DNA from: Patescibacteria group bacterium
GTDB taxonomy: Bacteria; Patescibacteriota; Patescibacteriia; UBA9934; GWF2-40-263
Direction: 5' to 3'
DNA length: 33,596 bases
Assembly: GCA_004297215.1 (NCBI GenBank)
Contig: SCUM01000001.1
Span: forward strand, 808,716 to 842,311
Shown: positions 14,082-33,596 of the stretch, one piece after another
How the letters are laid out: each line of letters starts with the position of its first letter
How positions within the stretch are numbered: position 1 is the first letter of the stretch
The notes under the pieces: generated by a model
What the model was told of the DNA's origin: nothing
The model's database searches: none
What the model saw: the letters and a program-made list of their open reading frames with translations, nothing else
Made by a program: the position numbers and the translations under genes

Positions 14082-14155
14082 TGGAGCGGGCGACGGGAAT
14101 CGAACCCGTGACTACTCCTTGGAAGAGAGTCGTTTGACCACTAAACTACGCCCGC
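14082..14155 (-). tRNA. tRNA-Gly (anticodon UCC), CCA encoded
   Basis: Reverse complement GCGGGCG-TA-GTTT..AAAC-G-ACTCT-CTTCCAA-GGAGT-AGTC-ACGGG-TTCGATT-CCCGT-CGCCCGC-TCCA folds as a cloverleaf. Confidence 0.93.
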
Positions 14156-15156: not shown

Positions 15157-15233
15157 TGGTCGGGCTGGCCGGACTTGAACCGGCGGCCTCCTGCTCCCAA
15201 AGCAGGCGTTCTAGCCAACTGAACTACAGCCCG
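15157..15233 (-). tRNA. tRNA-Pro (anticodon UGG), CCA encoded
   Basis: Reverse complement CGGGCTG-TA-GTTCAGTTGGCTAGAAC-G-CCTGC-TTTGGGA-GCAGG-AGGCC-GCCGG-TTCAAGT-CCGGC-CAGCCCG-ACCA. Confidence 0.93.
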
Positions 15234-16473: not shown

Positions 16474-16550
16474 GGGCGTGTAGCTCAGTTGGTTAGAGCG
16501 CGACACTGATAATGTCGAGGTCCCAAGTTCGACTCTTGGCACGCCCACCA
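16474..16550 (+). tRNA. tRNA-Ile (anticodon GAU), CCA encoded
   Basis: GGGCGTG-TA-GCTCAGTTGGTTAGAGC-G-CGACA-CTGATAA-TGTCG-AGGTC-CCAAG-TTCGACT-CTTGG-CACGCCC-ACCA. Confidence 0.95.
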
Positions 16551-17165: not shown

Positions 17166-17240
17166 GCCGAGGTAGCTCAGTGGTAGAGCGCAGGCCTGAA
17201 GAGCCTGGCGTCGTGGGTTCAATTCCCACCCTCGGCACCA
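17166..17240 (+). tRNA. tRNA-Phe (anticodon GAA), CCA encoded
   Basis: GCCGAGG-TA-GCTCAGTGGTAGAGC-G-CAGGC-CTGAAGA-GCCTG-GCGTC-GTGGG-TTCAATT-CCCAC-CCTCGGC-ACCA. Confidence 0.95.
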
Positions 17241-17386: not shown

Positions 17387-18880
<1,494 letters not shown>

Positions 18881-26460: not shown

Positions 26461-27426
26461 ATGGAAGCCTTCGTGCACCAGCGCATCCATGACACGCTCA
26501 AGGCAGCGAAGAAGCCGCTGCTCGTTTGCGACGCGCGCATTGACGGGGACAGCTTGGGGAGCGCCTTGGCCGTGGCGGACTGGCTCATGAAGGAAGGGAA
26601 ATCGCCGCGCGTGTTCGTCGTGACTCCTGTCCCGGAGAGTTATCGGTTCTTGCCGCATCTGGAGCGGACGACGAGCGACCAAAGCGTGTTCGCGGACGTG
26701 CAGCTCGACGCGATCGCGTTCTTCGACTGTTCGCGTCAGGAGTTCGCGGCGGAGCTGCTGAAGCCCGTCCCGGGGCGGCCCGCCATCATCAATATCGACC
26801 ATCATTCCACAAACCCGCGGTACGGCGACGTGAACCAGGTACTCACCGACGCGCCGGCCACGGCCGAGGTGGTGCACCGGTTCTTCAAGGAGAACGGCAT
26901 CGTCCCGAGCAAGGAAGCGGCGCTGTGCCTGCTCGCCGGCATCTACTTCGACACCACGGCGTTTTCAAACGGGGCCACGTGCGAGCGCGCGTTCCTGTCG
27001 GCGGCGGAGCTCGTGCGATGCGGAGGGAAGCCCAAGGACGTGATCCGGGCGCTCATGTACAACCGGCCCATGTCGGCGTTGCGCGCGTGGGGGACGGCGC
27101 TTGAGCGCCTCCGCGAGCTCCCGGGCACGGGCTGGGTCGTGACCCACGTCACCCTCGCGGACCTCGCCGCGCACGGCGCCACGGACGACGACCTGCAGGA
27201 GTTCTCCACCTTCCTTGCCATGATGATCGACGCGCCCACCGTGGCCGTGCTGCAGGAGGCGCCGGGCATGGTCAAAGTGAGCATGAGAAGCCACGGCAGC
27301 GACGTGTCGGCCGTTGCCAGGCGCTTTGGCGGGGGAGGGCATGTGAAAGCCGCCGGCTGCCGCATGAGCGGCGTTACCCTTGAGGAGGCGGAGGAGTGTC
27401 TAAAAACGGAAATATGTAGGATGTAG
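26461..27426 (+). CDS. nrnA: DHH/DHHA1-family phosphoesterase (NrnA-like oligoribonuclease/pAp phosphatase)
   Basis: DGDSLGS, NIDHH and C-terminal GGGHVKAAG motifs. Confidence 0.85.
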   Translation: MEAFVHQRIHDTLKAAKKPLLVCDARIDGDSLGSALAVADWLMKEGKSPRVFVVTPVPESYRFLPHLERTTSDQSVFADVQLDAIAFFDCSRQEFAAELLKPVPGRPAIINIDHHSTNPRYGDVNQVLTDAPATAEVVHRFFKENGIVPSKEAALCLLAGIYFDTTAFSNGATCERAFLSAAELVRCGGKPKDVIRALMYNRPMSALRAWGTALERLRELPGTGWVVTHVTLADLAAHGATDDDLQEFSTFLAMMIDAPTVAVLQEAPGMVKVSMRSHGSDVSAVARRFGGGGHVKAAGCRMSGVTLEEAEECLKTEICRM

Positions 27427-27476
27427 GATGTAGAATGAATCATCCTCAGTCCCATCCTTCATTCTACATCCTACAT
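27414..27476. repeat. heptamer direct repeats forming a 19-bp perfect inverted repeat between nrnA and clpP
   Basis: ATGTAGG ATGTAGG ATGTAGA ATGAA (27414-27439). The arm ATGTAGGATGTAGAATGAA (27421-27439) pairs perfectly with TTCATTCTACATCCTACAT (27458-27476). Confidence 0.8.
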
Positions 27477-27491
27477 TCTTCATAAAACCTT

Positions 27492-28091
27492 ATGGATACC
27501 CCTACCGCCAACTATCTCATCCCTACGGTCATCGAAAAGACGCACCAGGGCGAGCGCGCCTACGACATCTATTCGCGCCTCCTCAAGGACCGCATCATCT
27601 TCCTCGGCACCCAGGTGGACGACACGGTGGCGAACCTCATCATCGCCCAGCTGTTGTTTCTCGAGAGCCAGGACAAGACCAAGGACATCAAGCTGTACGT
27701 GAACTCCCCGGGCGGCTCCGTCACGGCCGGGCTCGCCATTTACGACGCCATGCAGTACGTGAAGCCGGACGTGTCCACTATCTGCGTTGGCATGGCGGCC
27801 TCGATGGGCGCGGTGCTCTTGGCCGGCGGCGCAAAGGGGAAGCGCTTCAGCCTGCCCAACTCCGAGATCATGATCCACCAGGTGCTGGGCGGGTTCCAGG
27901 GCCAAGCCACCGACATCCACATCCACGCCACCAGGATCCTCAAGATCAAGGATCGGTTGAACGAGATCCTCGCGACGCACACCGGCCAGAAGAAATCGAA
28001 GGTCCAAGAGGACACGGAGCGCGACAACTTCATGGACCCGATGGACGCGAAGAAGTACGGGCTGATCGACAAGGTGATCACGACGCTTTAG
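27492..28091 (+). CDS. clpP: ATP-dependent Clp protease proteolytic subunit
   Basis: [16 protein letters not shown] and the catalytic-Ser context GMAASMGA, plus IMIHQ. 199 aa. Confidence 0.96.
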
Positions 28092-28127
28092 CCGGTCCTG
28101 ACAGCCAAAATCAATGCTTTTCTAAGA

Positions 28128-28158
28128 AAACACACAGGCCCTGGCCTGTGTGTTTGTT
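28128..28158 (+). terminator. rho-independent terminator after clpP
   Basis: AAACACACAGGCC-CT-GGCCTGTGTGTTT followed by GTT. Confidence 0.65.
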
Positions 28159-28186
28159 CGGGATAACATCGGGATGGTGCAGGACG

Positions 28187-28215
28187 TTGACAAATATCCG
28201 TGTCACCCGTAAAGT
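28187..28215 (+). promoter_or_regulatory. near-consensus orphan promoter
   Basis: TTGACA (28187-28192), 17-nt spacer, TAAAGT (28210-28215). No CDS follows on this strand. Confidence 0.5.
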
Positions 28216-28221
28216 AGCGAG

Positions 28222-28529
28222 TCAATCGTTCCTTCTCTTTGCAACCTTCCCCCGTCAGTGACGATAGGGGATAGAGAACCCGCCTTCGCCAAAGGCTACG
28301 GCGGGCAAACAAAAAGGCCCGTTGCAATCAGTGACCTGCAGGCACGACAAGCATGGGATTTCATTTCGTGGGTGTTCTGGCTAACGCTCGACCACCCCAC
28401 GACTGAAATTTCTTGCCTGCAGTTCACTCGTTACAACGGCCTTTTGCATTCCCGGGGTATCTCGGGAGTTCCTTCGCCGCTGATGCGTCTCAGGATGACC
28501 AGACCCTCTGCGGGTATGGTCATTTTTTG
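28222..28529 (+). ncRNA. candidate novel structured ncRNA (about 300 nt), class unknown
   Basis: Bounded by the promoter above and an intrinsic terminator (ATGACCAGACCC-TCTGC-GGGTATGGTCAT plus T6, 28495-28528). Contains a 138-nt extended imperfect hairpin at 28309-28446. Only one ORF is present, and it is atypical and spans the terminator. Confidence 0.4.
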
Positions 28530-28690
28530 TTTGTGTGCGTTGGATGCCATGTGCAGGAGCGTTGCCGGAGAAGCGACGCCGCTGACAGGTCATCCATGAT
28601 GATACGCCTTCTGTTTCATGCGACAAGCGAGAGATGTGGATAAGCGTGTTTCGGAAGTGCGGAACGTATGGAGACACGGAATAGATGGAA

Positions 28691-30625
28691 TCACGGAGTG
28701 ACGGTCGGCGGAGCGGTGACCGCGCCTCCCGCGTCGATGGCCCCCGTCGGCGCCTCGACGCTCGATGCGCCGGTGCCCACGAGACAGATTTTCGGGAGCG
28801 GACGATAGTGCGAGGCGAACTCGGTCTGTTCTTCCGTCCCGTCGGGACGCGCGATCGTATACAGGAAGGTGGTATCGGCGCCGTTGTGCGGGGACTGGCA
28901 TTGCTGCTCTCCGGCGGGGAGGCTTTCGGTCGGGGTGTCCACCTGGTCGCCGAACGGGATCCATCGGATCACCTTGGGCGGGGTGTAGGACCCTTTCCGG
29001 CCGTCGGAGGTTCCCCAGAAGTGGAAGTCGAGCGTCTGTTTCGTCTCGTCCATGAATGCCTGGAACAGGACGTAATGGCCCGTGTCATTCGTGAACTTCA
29101 GGTCCGGCGCCGGTTCGTAAATGGTGGCGTCCGTCCCAGGATTGCCGTTGCTCGGATCGCCGTAATAGGAGATCACGAGGCTGTGGTTGCGTCGCTCCAC
29201 CACGGGGAGGCCGGAATTCATGATCGTTCGGAACGTGGTGGTGCCGATCTGGCACAGCCCGCCGCCGAGCTCGGGCGTGATCTTGTCCCCCTTGATGACC
29301 AGTTCGGCGAGATAGCCGTTCGCGGCATCGAACGGCTTGAGCGCGTTGATGAGCGAGAAGGTCTCATCGGGCGCGATGAGCAGGCCGTTCAGGAGCTTCA
29401 CCCCGTTCTTGATGTTCTTGATGCGGTTCTTCGGGCTCCCTTTGAAGCTTGATGTCCCCGTGCCGAGTTCCGCGACGATGCCCAGGTCGTCGCCTTGAGA
29501 GGTTTGGACGCTCGGCTCGGTATCGATGAGAACGATCGAGGTCTCTCGTCCCTCCTCGAACACCCCGACGCTGGCATCGTTAAGGTCGCTCTCGAACCGT
29601 TCCTGTGTCAGACGCCTGTCGATGGCGCGTCCGGCTTGGCTCGTCGCGAATTCGGAGACTTTGCCGTCCACGATCTGGAACCGGGCGTTGCGCGCCGGTA
29701 TCTCCACGACCTTCGCGAGCTCATCGAGCTCCTTGCCGAACGCTTCCTCATCCACCCCAAGGAAGACATATCCGTCCTGCAACCTCGGGACGAGCATGCG
29801 GGAGAGCTTCGCGGCGTTCATGCTCCAGATGACGGGATGTTCCTCCGTCCCTTGTTCCGCATCCTCCAGCTTAAAGGGGAAGGGAGCGCGCGCGAGGGCG
29901 TTTTCCGCCTGTTCGAGCCGCATGCGGACCGCTTCGGCTTCGATCGTGGGCCGCATGGCGGTCATGGAAAGGCGGACCGGGGCCGGGGAGAGCGAACGGA
30001 GGGCTTCGGTGAGACGGGGGACGAACGTATCGAAGTCGAACGTGCGGCCGACGGCGCCCTCCACGACGTCCGCCTGCCAGCCGTCGCGCTCTTCCGTGAA
30101 TGAGAACGAAGCTTCCTTGAACGGGATTTCCAGGTCCGGGAAGGCGGCGCGGACGTTCGTCTCCACGTTCTCACGGGTGAGGGCGACCGGAACGTCGATC
30201 CGTCGCATGGGCCCGAACAGTCGCGCGCGCATGAGCAGCAGCACGTCGAGCGCCGGGGACTCGGAGCGGCCGTAGGCGAGCGCCGCCTCGGCGCCCGCGC
30301 TCACGTCAAACGTCACGTCCTCGGTGGTGTCCCCGCTCATGAAGGTGATGAGCGGGATGACGGCATGCCTGCCATCAAGGTCGATGGGAACGCCTTCTGC
30401 CAGGCGTCGGTCGACGGCGCGTTGCACCGCCTCGACCGCTTCTTCGCGCGTGAGACCGCCCACGGGCACGCTGCCGATGCTCACCCGCGGGGCGATGCGG
30501 CCGTCGTACGACTGCGCCCACACGGCCGACGTGACGACGGCGGCGCCGAGGGCGAGCAGGAAGGACACGACGGCCGCCGCGGTCGTCGTCCGCCAAAAGA
30601 ACAGTTTCTTCAGCGCATCCTTCAC
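28691..30625 (-). CDS. VanW-domain protein with N-terminal membrane anchor
   Basis: VanW block LIAPDETFSL..GYL..GGGLCQIGTTTFR..GLPVVERRNHS. The GTG at 30625 overlaps the hsp20 stop (GTGA) and is followed by the TM segment AAAVVSFLLALGAAVV. The track ORF extends further into hsp20. Confidence 0.85.
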   Translation of the reverse strand: MKDALKKLFFWRTTTAAAVVSFLLALGAAVVTSAVWAQSYDGRIAPRVSIGSVPVGGLTREEAVEAVQRAVDRRLAEGVPIDLDGRHAVIPLITFMSGDTTEDVTFDVSAGAEAALAYGRSESPALDVLLLMRARLFGPMRRIDVPVALTRENVETNVRAAFPDLEIPFKEASFSFTEERDGWQADVVEGAVGRTFDFDTFVPRLTEALRSLSPAPVRLSMTAMRPTIEAEAVRMRLEQAENALARAPFPFKLEDAEQGTEEHPVIWSMNAAKLSRMLVPRLQDGYVFLGVDEEAFGKELDELAKVVEIPARNARFQIVDGKVSEFATSQAGRAIDRRLTQERFESDLNDASVGVFEEGRETSIVLIDTEPSVQTSQGDDLGIVAELGTGTSSFKGSPKNRIKNIKNGVKLLNGLLIAPDETFSLINALKPFDAANGYLAELVIKGDKITPELGGGLCQIGTTTFRTIMNSGLPVVERRNHSLVISYYGDPSNGNPGTDATIYEPAPDLKFTNDTGHYVLFQAFMDETKQTLDFHFWGTSDGRKGSYTPPKVIRWIPFGDQVDTPTESLPAGEQQCQSPHNGADTTFLYTIARPDGTEEQTEFASHYRPLPKICLVGTGASSVEAPTGAIDAGGAVTAPPTVTP

Positions 30626-31017
30626 ACGTTCCGGTCCACGACGTTGATATGCGCCCGCGCTTCGGCTTTCGGGAGCGTGATCGTGAGGATGCCGTTGCGC
30701 AGCGAGGCGTCGGCTTCGTCGGGCCGCACGGCGCATGGGAGCATGACGGAGCGCGAGAAGCTCCCCCAGAAGCATTCTTGCACGTGCACGAGCGCCTCCG
30801 GGTGGTCGACGTGCCCGTGGGAGCGGCTGCCGCGGATGGTGACCGAATCCTCCGTGACGTTCACATCGAGCTCGTCGGCGGCGAGCCCGGCGATCGCCGA
30901 GCGGATCACGAGCGTGCGCGGGGTCTCGAGCACGTCCACGGAAAGCTGTCCCTCCTCGGGCTTGAGCACCGCGTCGGCAAGGGCGTCGATATAGGCGTGG
31001 TCTTCCACGTGTTCCAT
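30622..31017 (-). CDS. Hsp20/alpha-crystallin family small heat-shock protein
   Basis: 131 aa from MEHVEDH. Alpha-crystallin pattern GQLSVDVLETPRTLVIRSAIAG..VTIRGSR..GSFSRSVMLP..NGILTITLPK. Confidence 0.9.
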   Translation of the reverse strand: MEHVEDHAYIDALADAVLKPEEGQLSVDVLETPRTLVIRSAIAGLAADELDVNVTEDSVTIRGSRSHGHVDHPEALVHVQECFWGSFSRSVMLPCAVRPDEADASLRNGILTITLPKAEARAHINVVDRNV

Positions 31018-31796: not shown

Positions 31797-33596
31797 ATGT
31801 GGATAAGGTCATTCGTTGTTGGGGATGTTTTTTTGGAGTACCATGTACGCATTGTGGCACCCCATATCCACAGCCCGAATTTTTTCGAGTGGGCCCGACG
31901 AGTGGTAGGCGTGCTGCTGGTGACCGGAATGATTTTCGGTCAGATTGGCGTTGCACATGCGGACGTGCCGCGCATCATCAGCCATCAGGGACGTTTGCTT
32001 GATTCCGCGGGAGATTTGCTTGGCGGATCCGGCGGGACCGATTACTGCTTCCGCTTCTCGATCTTCGACGACGCGACCGTGGGAGCGCCCGACAGCCAGC
32101 TGTGGCCCGCGGGCACGCCTTCCAACATGACCGCGGAGGTCACCCAAGGCGTGTTCAACGTGAACGTGGGCGACACCGGGGCCGGCGGCGACCTCCTGGA
32201 CTTCAACTTCGAGGACGATGACGACGTGTACCTGAACGTGCAGGTCGCCACGCAGGTGGGCGGGAGCTGCGCCGGCGGGGACGAGTCGTTTGAGAACCTT
32301 TCCCCGCGCCAGCGCATCACCTCCGCGCCTTACGCCATCAACGCGCGCACGGTTGGCGGGTTCACGCCGGCCCAGAGCGCGGACGGCGACGAGATCCCGG
32401 TGCTCACCTCGGGCGATCTCGTCTTGGGCGACGCCGCTCCTAACGTCACGGCCACGGGCGCCACCGCGCTCACCATCCAAGGGGCCGGCGCCACGGGCGC
32501 GGTGCAGTTCTTCTCCTCCGCCAACTCGCTCGACTCCTCGGGCAATTTCACGATCGACGGGGCGCTCACGGCCGACGGCCTCACCATGAACGCCGCCGCC
32601 ACGTTCAACGCGGACGTGGATTTCACGTTTGCGGGTACCGAGAACGTCGGCCTTACGTCGGATTTGGGCGGCACAGTGAGCATGCTTTCGCTCACGGGCA
32701 CGCCAAGCGCCACGGCCGGGACCACGCGCGGCATCGCGATCGGCCAGGCGAGCAGCGCGAACACGAACGGCCTGGACGCCGCCCTCCTTATAGACAACGC
32801 GGACGCGGATCTCGCGATCGGGGACGCCATCCTCATCACCAACACGGGCGGGGGAGGATATACGGACCTCCTTGATTCGCCGACGCTCGACATTTCCGGC
32901 GCCGGAGCGATCACGGGCGCGACCGGCATCGCGGGCAGCGGCACCTGGGACACGAGCGGCGCGCTGGAGGGCGGCACGGTCAACGCCGTCACCTCGCTCT
33001 CCACCGCGGGAACCGTGCGCCTGGACTCTTCGGGTAACCTCACGAGCATCGGCAACCTCACCGCGACCGGGGCGATCACGGTCTCTTCGACCGGGGCGAC
33101 GAACGACATCATCCTGGATTCGGCCGACCTTGTGATCGTGCAGGACGACCTCACGGTGAACGCAAACCTCGCCTTTGGCGCGGCGTCCCCCGCGATCGCG
33201 ATCCCGAACACCGACTCGCTCGTCGTGACCGACGGCACTAACACGCTGCTCACCGTTACCGACGGGGGGACCGTGGGGAACGTCTCGGTCACGGGCACGC
33301 TTGGCGCGGGCGCCACCACCGTGTCCTCGCTCACGGTCGGCACCATCCTGCTTTCCGCGGTCGGGACCTCCAACAGCACCTCGGGCGCCAGCCTCGTGGG
33401 CGTGTTCGACGAGTTCACGAACTCCTCCGCCACGACGGTGCAGGACGTGCTCGACGACCTGGACGCCGCGATCGGTGCCGGGGGGTCCAAGTGGACCGAC
33501 GACGGCACCTTCACGTACCTCTCGAGCGCCACCGACGACCTGGTGCTGGGCGGCTCCACCGTGGCCGGCGCCTCCTTCTTCTTCGACGAGAGCGCG
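31797..33596 (+). CDS. large secreted Gly/Thr/Ala/Asp-rich repeat protein (surface or fibre-like), 3'-partial
   Basis: I translated this frame by hand and it stays open to the window end (600 codons), so it is absent from the track. Codons are GC3-rich. Signal peptide ARRVVGVLLVTGMIFGQIGVAHA-DVPR. The start is uncertain (ATG 31797 or GTG 31854). Confidence 0.75.
   Translation, partial: MWIRSFVVGDVFLEYHVRIVAPHIHSPNFFEWARRVVGVLLVTGMIFGQIGVAHADVPRIISHQGRLLDSAGDLLGGSGGTDYCFRFSIFDDATVGAPDSQLWPAGTPSNMTAEVTQGVFNVNVGDTGAGGDLLDFNFEDDDDVYLNVQVATQVGGSCAGGDESFENLSPRQRITSAPYAINARTVGGFTPAQSADGDEIPVLTSGDLVLGDAAPNVTATGATALTIQGAGATGAVQFFSSANSLDSSGNFTIDGALTADGLTMNAAATFNADVDFTFAGTENVGLTSDLGGTVSMLSLTGTPSATAGTTRGIAIGQASSANTNGLDAALLIDNADADLAIGDAILITNTGGGGYTDLLDSPTLDISGAGAITGATGIAGSGTWDTSGALEGGTVNAVTSLSTAGTVRLDSSGNLTSIGNLTATGAITVSSTGATNDIILDSADLVIVQDDLTVNANLAFGAASPAIAIPNTDSLVVTDGTNTLLTVTDGGTVGNVSVTGTLGAGATTVSSLTVGTILLSAVGTSNSTSGASLVGVFDEFTNSSATTVQDVLDDLDAAIGAGGSKWTDDGTFTYLSSATDDLVLGGSTVAGASFFFDESA

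Follow-up and report, generated by a model that had tools for sequence, protein, structure and literature searches.

The window analysed here, a 33.6-kb stretch of DNA taken as a whole, carries a 599-nt spacer (28092-28690) between the clpP gene and a convergent gene coding for a VanW/PG_binding_4 protein. A first-pass annotation made from the sequence had placed a candidate novel, independently transcribed non-coding RNA (ncRNA) in this gap of about 600 nt behind the clpP terminator. As suggested by our comparative analysis, the spacer very probably harbours a real and conserved ncRNA gene, whose family is absent from Rfam 15 and whose core is a rod-like hairpin with an invariant internal bulge. 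The promoter, hairpin, terminator and open reading frame (ORF) of the first-pass annotation were all found at the coordinates it gave, and the features of the locus are as follows.

27492-28091, plus strand: clpP gene
28128-28155: clpP terminator
28187-28192 and 28210-28215, plus strand: sense promoter, with the -35 element TTGACA, a 17-nt spacer and the -10 element TAAAGT; predicted start at about 28222
28222-28308, plus strand: 5' leader with two local hairpins at about 28240-28305, seen in the fold and lying outside the conserved family
28258-28599, plus strand: 113-codon ORF, judged non-coding
28306-28317, minus strand: A run CAAACAAAAAGG in plus-strand letters; in a minus-strand transcript it would follow the hairpin as a U5 tract
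28309-28446, plus strand: conserved rod-like hairpin, the family core, identified by fold, covariance model R1 and covariation
28312-28338 with 28420-28445, plus strand: outer stem
28339-28344 with 28414-28419, plus strand: lower helix CAGGCA/TGCCTG
28345-28354, plus strand: invariant 10-nt bulge CGACAAGCAT, facing the single unpaired T at 28413
28355-28363, plus strand: 5' strand of the upper helix, GGGATTTCA, paired with 28404-28412
28364-28403, plus strand: variable apical domain, with a semi-conserved GG...CC block and a GGY/RCU helix closing a free loop
28442-28445, plus strand: short U tract (T4) at the base of the hairpin; as a terminator it is weak in this genome
28495-28529, plus strand: second intrinsic terminator (12-bp stem containing a single mismatch, then T6)
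28626-28599, minus strand: antisense promoter-like element TTGTCG-16-TATCAT, directed into the hairpin
28635-28643, plus strand: perfect match to the DnaA box, TGTGGATAA (reverse complement of TTATCCACA), lying upstream of the antisense -35 element at a distance of 8 nt
28691-30775, minus strand: VanW/PG_binding_4 gene (694 aa), convergent with clpP

The sense promoter, listed in the first-pass annotation among the best of the window, scored 10/12, and the region contained two promoter-like sites where 0.4 would be expected. The 138-nt extended hairpin folds with -64.8 kcal/mol; its z is -9.07, and 200 shuffles yielded no fold as good; for the unit 28215-28530 as a whole, z was -6.8. The terminator announced about 300 nt downstream of the promoter is likewise present, its stem (28495-28506/28512-28523) being 92% complementary with a folding energy of -18.3 kcal/mol (z = -3.9), and it was missed by a simple terminator scan. 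The next gene does lie on the opposite strand, as had been stated. The flanking hairpins mentioned there are present in the fold, but the leader hairpins and the second terminator are lineage-specific and not conserved. The region 28240-28305 is gapped in all six syntenic relatives, and the leaders of family members elsewhere are about 15-30 nt long. Most of the syntenic relatives carry a T run directly 3' of the hairpin, and several close relatives possess analogous second terminators.

Its ClpP relatives put the window in Candidatus Uhrbacteria, a group of Patescibacteria (candidate phyla radiation, CPR). The order clpP, spacer, VanW gene is kept in six relatives, with ClpP about 83% identical, and the six syntenic spacers share the TTGACA promoter, the downstream TGTGGATAA and the hairpin blocks CTGCAGGCACGACAAGCATGGG.TTTCA and TGAAA.TTCTTGCCTGCAG. 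Comparison of these spacers, which the first-pass annotation had recommended, thus found promoter and hairpin conserved in related Uhrbacteria, and the same was true of more than 100 other contigs. Among the matches listed, the 18-mer core CAGGCACGACAAGCATGG was found in more than 120 metagenomic contigs; its 127 occurrences there included 117 with a matching 3' arm and about 4 chance matches, and clustering at 92% identity yielded 69 representatives. Two subtypes can be distinguished (individual loci are given L numbers below): type A, with CUGCAGGCA/UGCCUGCAG, which comprises Uhrbacteria and the window, and type B, with GGGYCAGGCA/UGCCURCCC, which occurs mainly on low-GC contigs. Where a 16S rRNA gene was compared that lies a few kb away from a type-B copy, it shared 78-81% identity with the 16S gene of the window, which indicates that the hairpin RNA family spans a deep divergence. 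At three loci (L164 203-558, L168 8521-8880 and L194 24-376) a type-A-like and a type-B-like copy stand in tandem, about 220 nt from each other, which suggests an old duplication followed by differential loss. A degenerate second core, CAGACACGACAAGCATGGGGATTTTCTTG, was also observed at about position 2880 of L132, on the strand opposite to the main copy. No 3' arm was recognisable there, and this core may be a duplicate that has decayed.

Covariation across homologues, which the first-pass annotation had named as a check on its candidate, proved strong. RNAalifold assigned 37 pairs to the 23 type-A sequences, 20 of them with compensatory changes, and the covariance model R1 was built from these sequences. 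All members were found by R1, with sense scores of 104-139 bits for type A and 41-87 bits for type B and divergent copies, against antisense scores of 21-57 bits. The hairpin of the window scored 125.6 bits on the plus strand and 43.4 bits on the minus strand, and a scan of 538 kb of other clpP loci returned zero matches. In the R1-fitted alignment of 71 sequences, 94.1% of cells pair as compared with 69.3% after shuffling, the covariation score is 0.63 versus 0.18 (slid controls reached at most 0.16), and both-sided changes occur in 31 of the 37 pairs. The lower helix offers direct examples, having been swapped compensatorily to CAGUCA/UGACUG in L009, CGCUCA/UGAGCG in L012 and UAUCCA/UGGAUG in L030. 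When a MAFFT alignment of both subtypes together was submitted to RNAalifold, only 8 pairs were recovered, because the register differs by a one-base bulge between the subtypes. Cells with G.U pairs outnumber those with A.C by 330 to 55, an excess which identifies the plus strand as the folded one.

Conservation is concentrated in the middle of the rod. The bulge CGACAAGCAU (in RNA letters) is identical in 71 of 71 aligned members, and also in the divergent and phage copies; it contains an invariant AUG. The strictly conserved unit consists of a C-G and an A-U pair below the bulge, the bulge itself opposite a single U, and G-C, G.U and G.U pairs above it, which correspond in the window to 28343-28344, 28345-28354 and 28355-28357, facing 28410-28415. 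The first three pairs of the upper helix are kept in 68/71 (G-C), 68/71 (G.U) and 71/71 (G.U) sequences, and the pairs higher up covary. The apex and the outer stem are free to vary: other members carry apical insertions of 30-90 nt, the first pair of the apical GGY/RCU helix is mostly G.U, and the length of the hairpin ranges from 91 to 196 nt across the family, with a median of 119.

The signals flanking the hairpin are also shared by the family. A perfect TTGACA-17-TAnnnT promoter lies upstream of 58 of 65 copies, a score of at least 10/12 was reached by 81% of promoters as against 3.6% of control windows, and 45 of 53 promoters bear the extended -10 TG. In quality, the RNA promoters match the 16S promoters of the same loci. 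On the 3' side of the stem, at least 5 T within 9 nt were counted in 45 of 71 members; at least 5 A within 10 nt on its 5' side were counted in 26, and both flanks were present in 22. The stem, U tract and A tract of a bidirectional intrinsic terminator can therefore be recognised, in the window as T4 after the stem and A5 before it. Judged from these signals, the closing stem with its U tract probably ends the RNA in most relatives. In the window, where the U tract is only T4, the transcript probably extends to 28529, and the A5 run implies that minus-strand transcripts, either from the convergent VanW gene or antisense to the RNA, can terminate at the hairpin. The role of terminator covers one function of the stem and leaves the promoter and the invariant bulge unexplained.

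No known family accounts for the element. In the window, Rfam 15 gave no match either with the gathering cut-off or with E <= 10, nor did it in 16 other loci at gathering and permissive thresholds, which answers the search of Rfam proposed in the first-pass annotation. That annotation had also seen no signatures of RNase P, transfer-messenger RNA (tmRNA) or signal recognition particle (SRP) RNA, and our data agree: ARAGORN reported no tmRNA in the window, and neither the tRNA-like ends and tag frame of tmRNA nor the P4 and CR regions of RNase P were found. YrlA (RF02553) produced weak sub-threshold matches only, located on the tRNAs of locus L086 and not on the hairpin RNA, and no TROVE gene was present among the annotated neighbour families. 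Full-text searches of the literature did not turn up a report of an RNA like this from Patescibacteria. The idea of a novel, independently transcribed ncRNA is therefore upheld by the conserved promoter and hairpin, the strong covariation and the lack of an Rfam family. It should be noted that the novelty applies to the RNA family and not necessarily to its mechanism.

Pairing with rRNA, or mimicry of it, was considered and rejected. The complement of the bulge fits the 16S gene of the window at 17834-17844 with one mismatch, but 22% of shuffled 18-nt cores did equally well, and off-locus 11-mer matches numbered 14 against 16.7 expected. In comparisons with E. coli 16S, 23S and 5S rRNA, the best results were 16S 756-777 and a 9-nt complement in 5S, each equalled in 3-4 of 300 shuffles and not significant over 24 comparisons; a similarity to 23S, ACGUACAAGCAGUGGG, was equalled in 12-14 of 300 shuffles.

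The genomic surroundings of the RNA are partly constant. In 47-50 of about 62 loci the downstream gene, convergent with the RNA, is a member of the VanW family, and DUF3006 or Hsp20 comes after it; at loci of type B the VanW stop codon is 6-90 nt away from the RNA. The upstream gene is varied: ClpP was found in 20 loci, MBL-fold proteins in 8 and RNase J in 8, and UvrABC, PHP and SBP genes are also among the neighbours. Copies of the RNA that lack a VanW neighbour adjoin a DAGK-type gene or ClpP, lie in a tRNA array or are carried by phages. The tRNA array (L086 156-3352, minus strand) holds 21 tRNA genes in 3.2 kb, with the RNA on the same strand between tRNA-Ile(TAT) and tRNA-Gly(TCC). The closing stem of this copy has just 10 bp, and its own promoter and terminator are absent, which implies release by tRNA-processing enzymes and defines the minimal unit.

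Viral contigs were scanned with a 15-mer and then with R1, and three distinct phage-like contigs with the RNA were obtained (L231, L229/L244 and L224). On L231 (2488-4638) the RNA is followed immediately by a 59-codon ORF and then by GroES and GroEL, and a terminator is lacking in between; on L229/L244 it is embedded in an Erf/ParB/exonuclease module; L224 has 65% GC. The phage genes on L229 and L231 were confirmed by PHROGs, and blastn in distant mode did not match the RNA in records of cultured phages. The GroES/GroEL genes of L231, together with the ClpP and Hsp20 neighbours in Uhrbacteria, point to a possible link with proteostasis, which may be a coincidence.

Unexpectedly, our analysis also revealed an oriented association of the RNA with DnaA boxes. 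Of 34 perfect boxes counted in 565 kb, 27 are no more than 400 nt away from the RNA, and each of these reads TGTGGATAA on the RNA strand. When one mismatch was allowed, 47 boxes of plus orientation fell within 250 nt of the RNA centre (69 loci), on a background of about 0.25/kb, and the 16S promoters of the same loci showed zero DnaA boxes. Overall, about two thirds of the loci have a box beside the RNA gene. In some 17 loci the box forms part of a type-A module downstream of the RNA, consisting of GATCTTAC or GATGATAC, about 17 nt, GCAAG, 6-9 nt and TGTGGATAA. Read on the minus strand, this is a box followed after 6-9 nt by a TTGCGC-like -35 element, 16-18 nt and a TAAGAT or TATCAT -10 element facing the hairpin. 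The loci with the module include the window (28599-28643), L001, L005, L007, L089, L095, L097, L116, L131, L134 and L139. In L131 and L007 its -10 element abuts the sense U tract, hence the predicted antisense transcript would span exactly the hairpin. In one type-B subgroup, one or two boxes reach to within 5 nt of the sense -35 element on its upstream side; L132, L186, L103 and L088 have two DnaA-box-like 9-mers at this place, in direct orientation and about 11 nt apart from start to start, as in TGTGGATAAGTATGAGGATAAAACTATTGACA. The copy in the tRNA array of L086 lacks a box.

A replication origin or terminus at the locus was considered and discarded, since the GC skew of the window shows no inflection at 28.6 kb and there are just one or two boxes per locus. 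As a separate observation, the only other perfect DnaA box of the window lies at 31798-31806, about 50 nt upstream of the start of an ORF for a 237-aa membrane protein (31745, minus strand).

On these grounds we give moderate preference to a compound reading, in which the locus encodes a stand-alone, highly transcribed and structured ncRNA that binds protein and whose level is tied to DnaA. A near-consensus sigma-70 promoter would drive the plus-strand RNA, whose mature part would be the rod-like hairpin of about 120 nt, acting in trans as an abundant RNA of the ribonucleoprotein (RNP) type. The bulge with its tandem G.U pairs might be where a conserved protein docks (a conserved nucleic acid being the less likely partner), and the long variable stems would be mere scaffold. 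Where one or two boxes adjoin the sense -35 element (5 nt upstream), DnaA may act directly, and in the Uhrbacteria type, including the window, it may act via the DnaA-box-linked antisense promoter. The A run before the stem would allow the hairpin to terminate the convergent VanW gene also. Taken one by one, the parts are held more cautiously: that the RNA acts in trans with a protein bound at its bulge is plausible, with the balance tipped slightly against it, and regulation by DnaA is put forward with a little more reserve still. Doubtful as a whole is the broadest version, a new housekeeping RNA class across Patescibacteria, borrowed by phages, in which the bulge and tandem G.U pairs nucleate an RNP and synthesis is wired to DnaA so as to link replication status to a core process.

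Several observations weigh against this compound reading. Transcription, the ends of the RNA and its abundance are all deduced from sequence signals, and folding energy in the window does not distinguish the strands (z of -9.1 on plus versus -7.8 on minus). The pair counts of the 71-sequence alignment are biased toward the structure of the model to which it was fitted; the independent MAFFT/RNAalifold result and the divergent copies nevertheless agree with that structure. About one third of the loci have no DnaA box, among them the close relatives L009 and L012, and the position of the box relative to the promoters differs by subgroup, which makes a single regulatory logic a conjecture. No consistent partner protein gene was found nearby, VanW being the only frequent neighbour, and phage and cellular loci have zero proteins in common. 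In addition, the assignment of the metagenomic loci to Patescibacteria draws on gene content and on the titled genomes L001-L012, and is to that extent presumptive.

Among the alternatives, two concern known RNAs. The first-pass annotation had suggested a 6S-like RNA, and a functional analogue of 6S, whose central loop would mimic an open promoter and sequester the RNA polymerase holoenzyme, has the closest architecture among known classes, with a conserved central internal loop between a variable apex and closing stem. The strong promoter, the two paralogous copies of some genomes and the weak helix beside the bulge, rich in G.U and A-U, fit this proposal too. Its structure disagrees, however: in place of a two-sided central bubble the loop is one-sided, 10 nt against 1 nt, and the adjoining helix covaries, which means that it is paired in the functional state. 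RF00013 found no match in the window even at E <= 10, nor in five other loci at E <= 1, and the median hairpin of 119 nt is shorter than 6S RNA, which measures roughly 160-200 nt; a 6S analogue is accordingly judged improbable. A highly divergent small SRP (4.5S) RNA would likewise form a hairpin of comparable length behind a strong promoter, and the core CAGG...AGCA recalls the two strands of the symmetric loop of domain IV. This likeness does not hold up, since the AGG forms Watson-Crick pairs that show compensatory changes and the apex is unconstrained; the AGCA moreover falls within the one-sided bulge, no conserved GNAR loop such as the apical tetraloop of domain IV is present, and the apex tolerates the long insertions described above. 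RF00169 gave no match either, and an SRP identity has next to nothing left to commend it. A canonical SRP RNA elsewhere was sought with a regular expression for domain IV over 1.5 Mb of loci, which detected no convincing candidate; the one plausible-looking hairpin, in L114, proved not to be an SRP match.

The remaining alternatives dispense with an RNA acting in trans. The hairpin could be mainly a cis element, that is, a bidirectional terminator and sense/antisense module that determines where the mRNA of the convergent VanW (L,D-transpeptidase-type) gene ends or how abundant it is. The prevalence of convergent VanW genes, with stops often 6-90 nt away, the frequency of U tracts (45/71) and A runs (26/71, both in 22) and the antisense promoter-like element in type A speak in its favour, yet a terminator needs neither a consensus promoter of its own nor a bulge held constant at about 80% 16S identity, and the RNA is present where VanW is not (DAGK-type gene, ClpP, tRNA array, phages). 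We regard this explanation as unlikely, to about the same degree as the 6S analogue. More remote is a DNA-level control locus for DnaA, with the inverted repeat extruded or bound as a hairpin: the otherwise rare perfect boxes are indeed concentrated here in one orientation, but the number of boxes per locus is small, the skew of the window has no inflection, the copy in the tRNA array has no box, and the excess of G.U over A.C together with the conserved promoter indicates an RNA. Finally, the ORF at 28258-28599, the invariant AUG of the bulge and the palindromic nature of the element might be taken for a small protein (encoded by that ORF, or started at the AUG in the manner of a type I toxin) or for a mobile palindrome like a miniature inverted-repeat transposable element (MITE). 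The first-pass annotation had found the ORF rich in rare codons and unlike a protein, and rightly so: its G+C content at third codon positions (GC3) is 0.59 versus 0.86 in the neighbouring genes, ATA, AGA and AGG are enriched 7- to 30-fold, and its 5' and 3' parts are missing from the syntenic relatives. Neither the frame nor the stop downstream of the bulge AUG is preserved, and the apical indels are not multiples of three. The MITE-like insert, which the same annotation had left as an option, is contradicted by the single copy in the window, the one or two copies per locus in syntenic position and their divergence by compensatory substitution. Both proposals appear hardly tenable.

The stand-alone ncRNA remains the reading that we prefer, and its significance lies in the organisms concerned. 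Patescibacteria, with their very small genomes, account for a large part of the diversity of bacteria, and hardly any have been cultured. When a genome is reduced, ncRNA genes that are universally retained and have promoters of rRNA grade usually belong to the core machinery (SRP RNA, tmRNA, RNase P, 6S), and another such RNA would indicate an undescribed RNP or regulatory circuit. The 10-nt motif is unchanged at about 80% 16S identity and has been copied by phages, and the tight, oriented association of the RNA gene with otherwise rare perfect DnaA boxes constitutes a testable link between replication control and an RNA. For annotators, the covariance model offers a new family and accounts for the recurrent 'empty' spacer beside VanW-type cell-wall genes.

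Other features of the window deserve mention in their own right. A 27-nt inverted repeat at 27413-27484 (93% complementary; arms TATGTAGGATGTAGGATGTAGAATGAA and TTCATTCTACATCCTACATTCTTCATA, 18 nt apart, the left one with a tandem GTAGGAT) spans the end of a DHH/DHHA1 gene (stop at 27426) and lies just before the start of clpP at 27492. By sequence it is neither CIRCE nor a CtsR box, and it could be a terminator or an operator. The window also contains a complete 16S rRNA gene (17387-18879, minus strand) with the promoter TTGACA-17-TAAGAT 323 nt upstream, and tRNA genes at 14082-14155, 15157-15233, 16474-16550 and 17166-17240. No 23S or 5S gene was found within the 33.6 kb, hence the rRNA genes are unlinked, and many type-B loci likewise show a lone 16S gene a few kb from the RNA.

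The hairpin RNA can be compared with several known systems. With 6S RNA (ssrS, RF00013) it shares the rod-like shape, a strong promoter of its own, a conserved internal loop in the middle of the rod, variable ends and the occurrence of paralogues; it differs in being shorter, in its invariant one-sided bulge flanked by a covarying helix and in the absence of a model match, and to our knowledge no association with DnaA boxes has been described for 6S. Like SRP RNA (4.5S, RF00169), it is a single hairpin of about 110-120 nt encoded by a gene of housekeeping type, with an asymmetric loop as the presumed protein site. The conserved site of SRP RNA is, however, apical (GNAR tetraloop with symmetric and asymmetric loops), whereas here it is central and the apex varies. 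Bidirectional intrinsic terminators resemble it in the flanking A and U runs and in lying between convergent genes, both of whose transcripts it probably ends, but the hairpin is 3-4 times longer than a typical terminator stem, is preceded by a promoter of its own, encloses an invariant internal loop and occurs even in a tRNA array, where termination is not needed. DnaA-regulated promoters, such as those of dnaA and other members of the regulon, have perfect TTATCCACA boxes, sometimes two about 11 nt apart, 5-9 nt upstream of the -35 element, as seen here; in our case the target gene is an ncRNA, the box serves the sense or the antisense promoter according to the subgroup, and its orientation is fixed to the RNA and not to the promoter. 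Orphan structured RNAs (Rfam motifs of the 'phylum-1' type) are likewise defined only by conservation and covariation and restricted to one large lineage. Relative to these, the hairpin RNA stands out by the unusually strict invariance of its 10-nt bulge at about 80% 16S identity and by its consensus promoter; it also has a DnaA box linked to it and occurs in phages and in a tRNA array.

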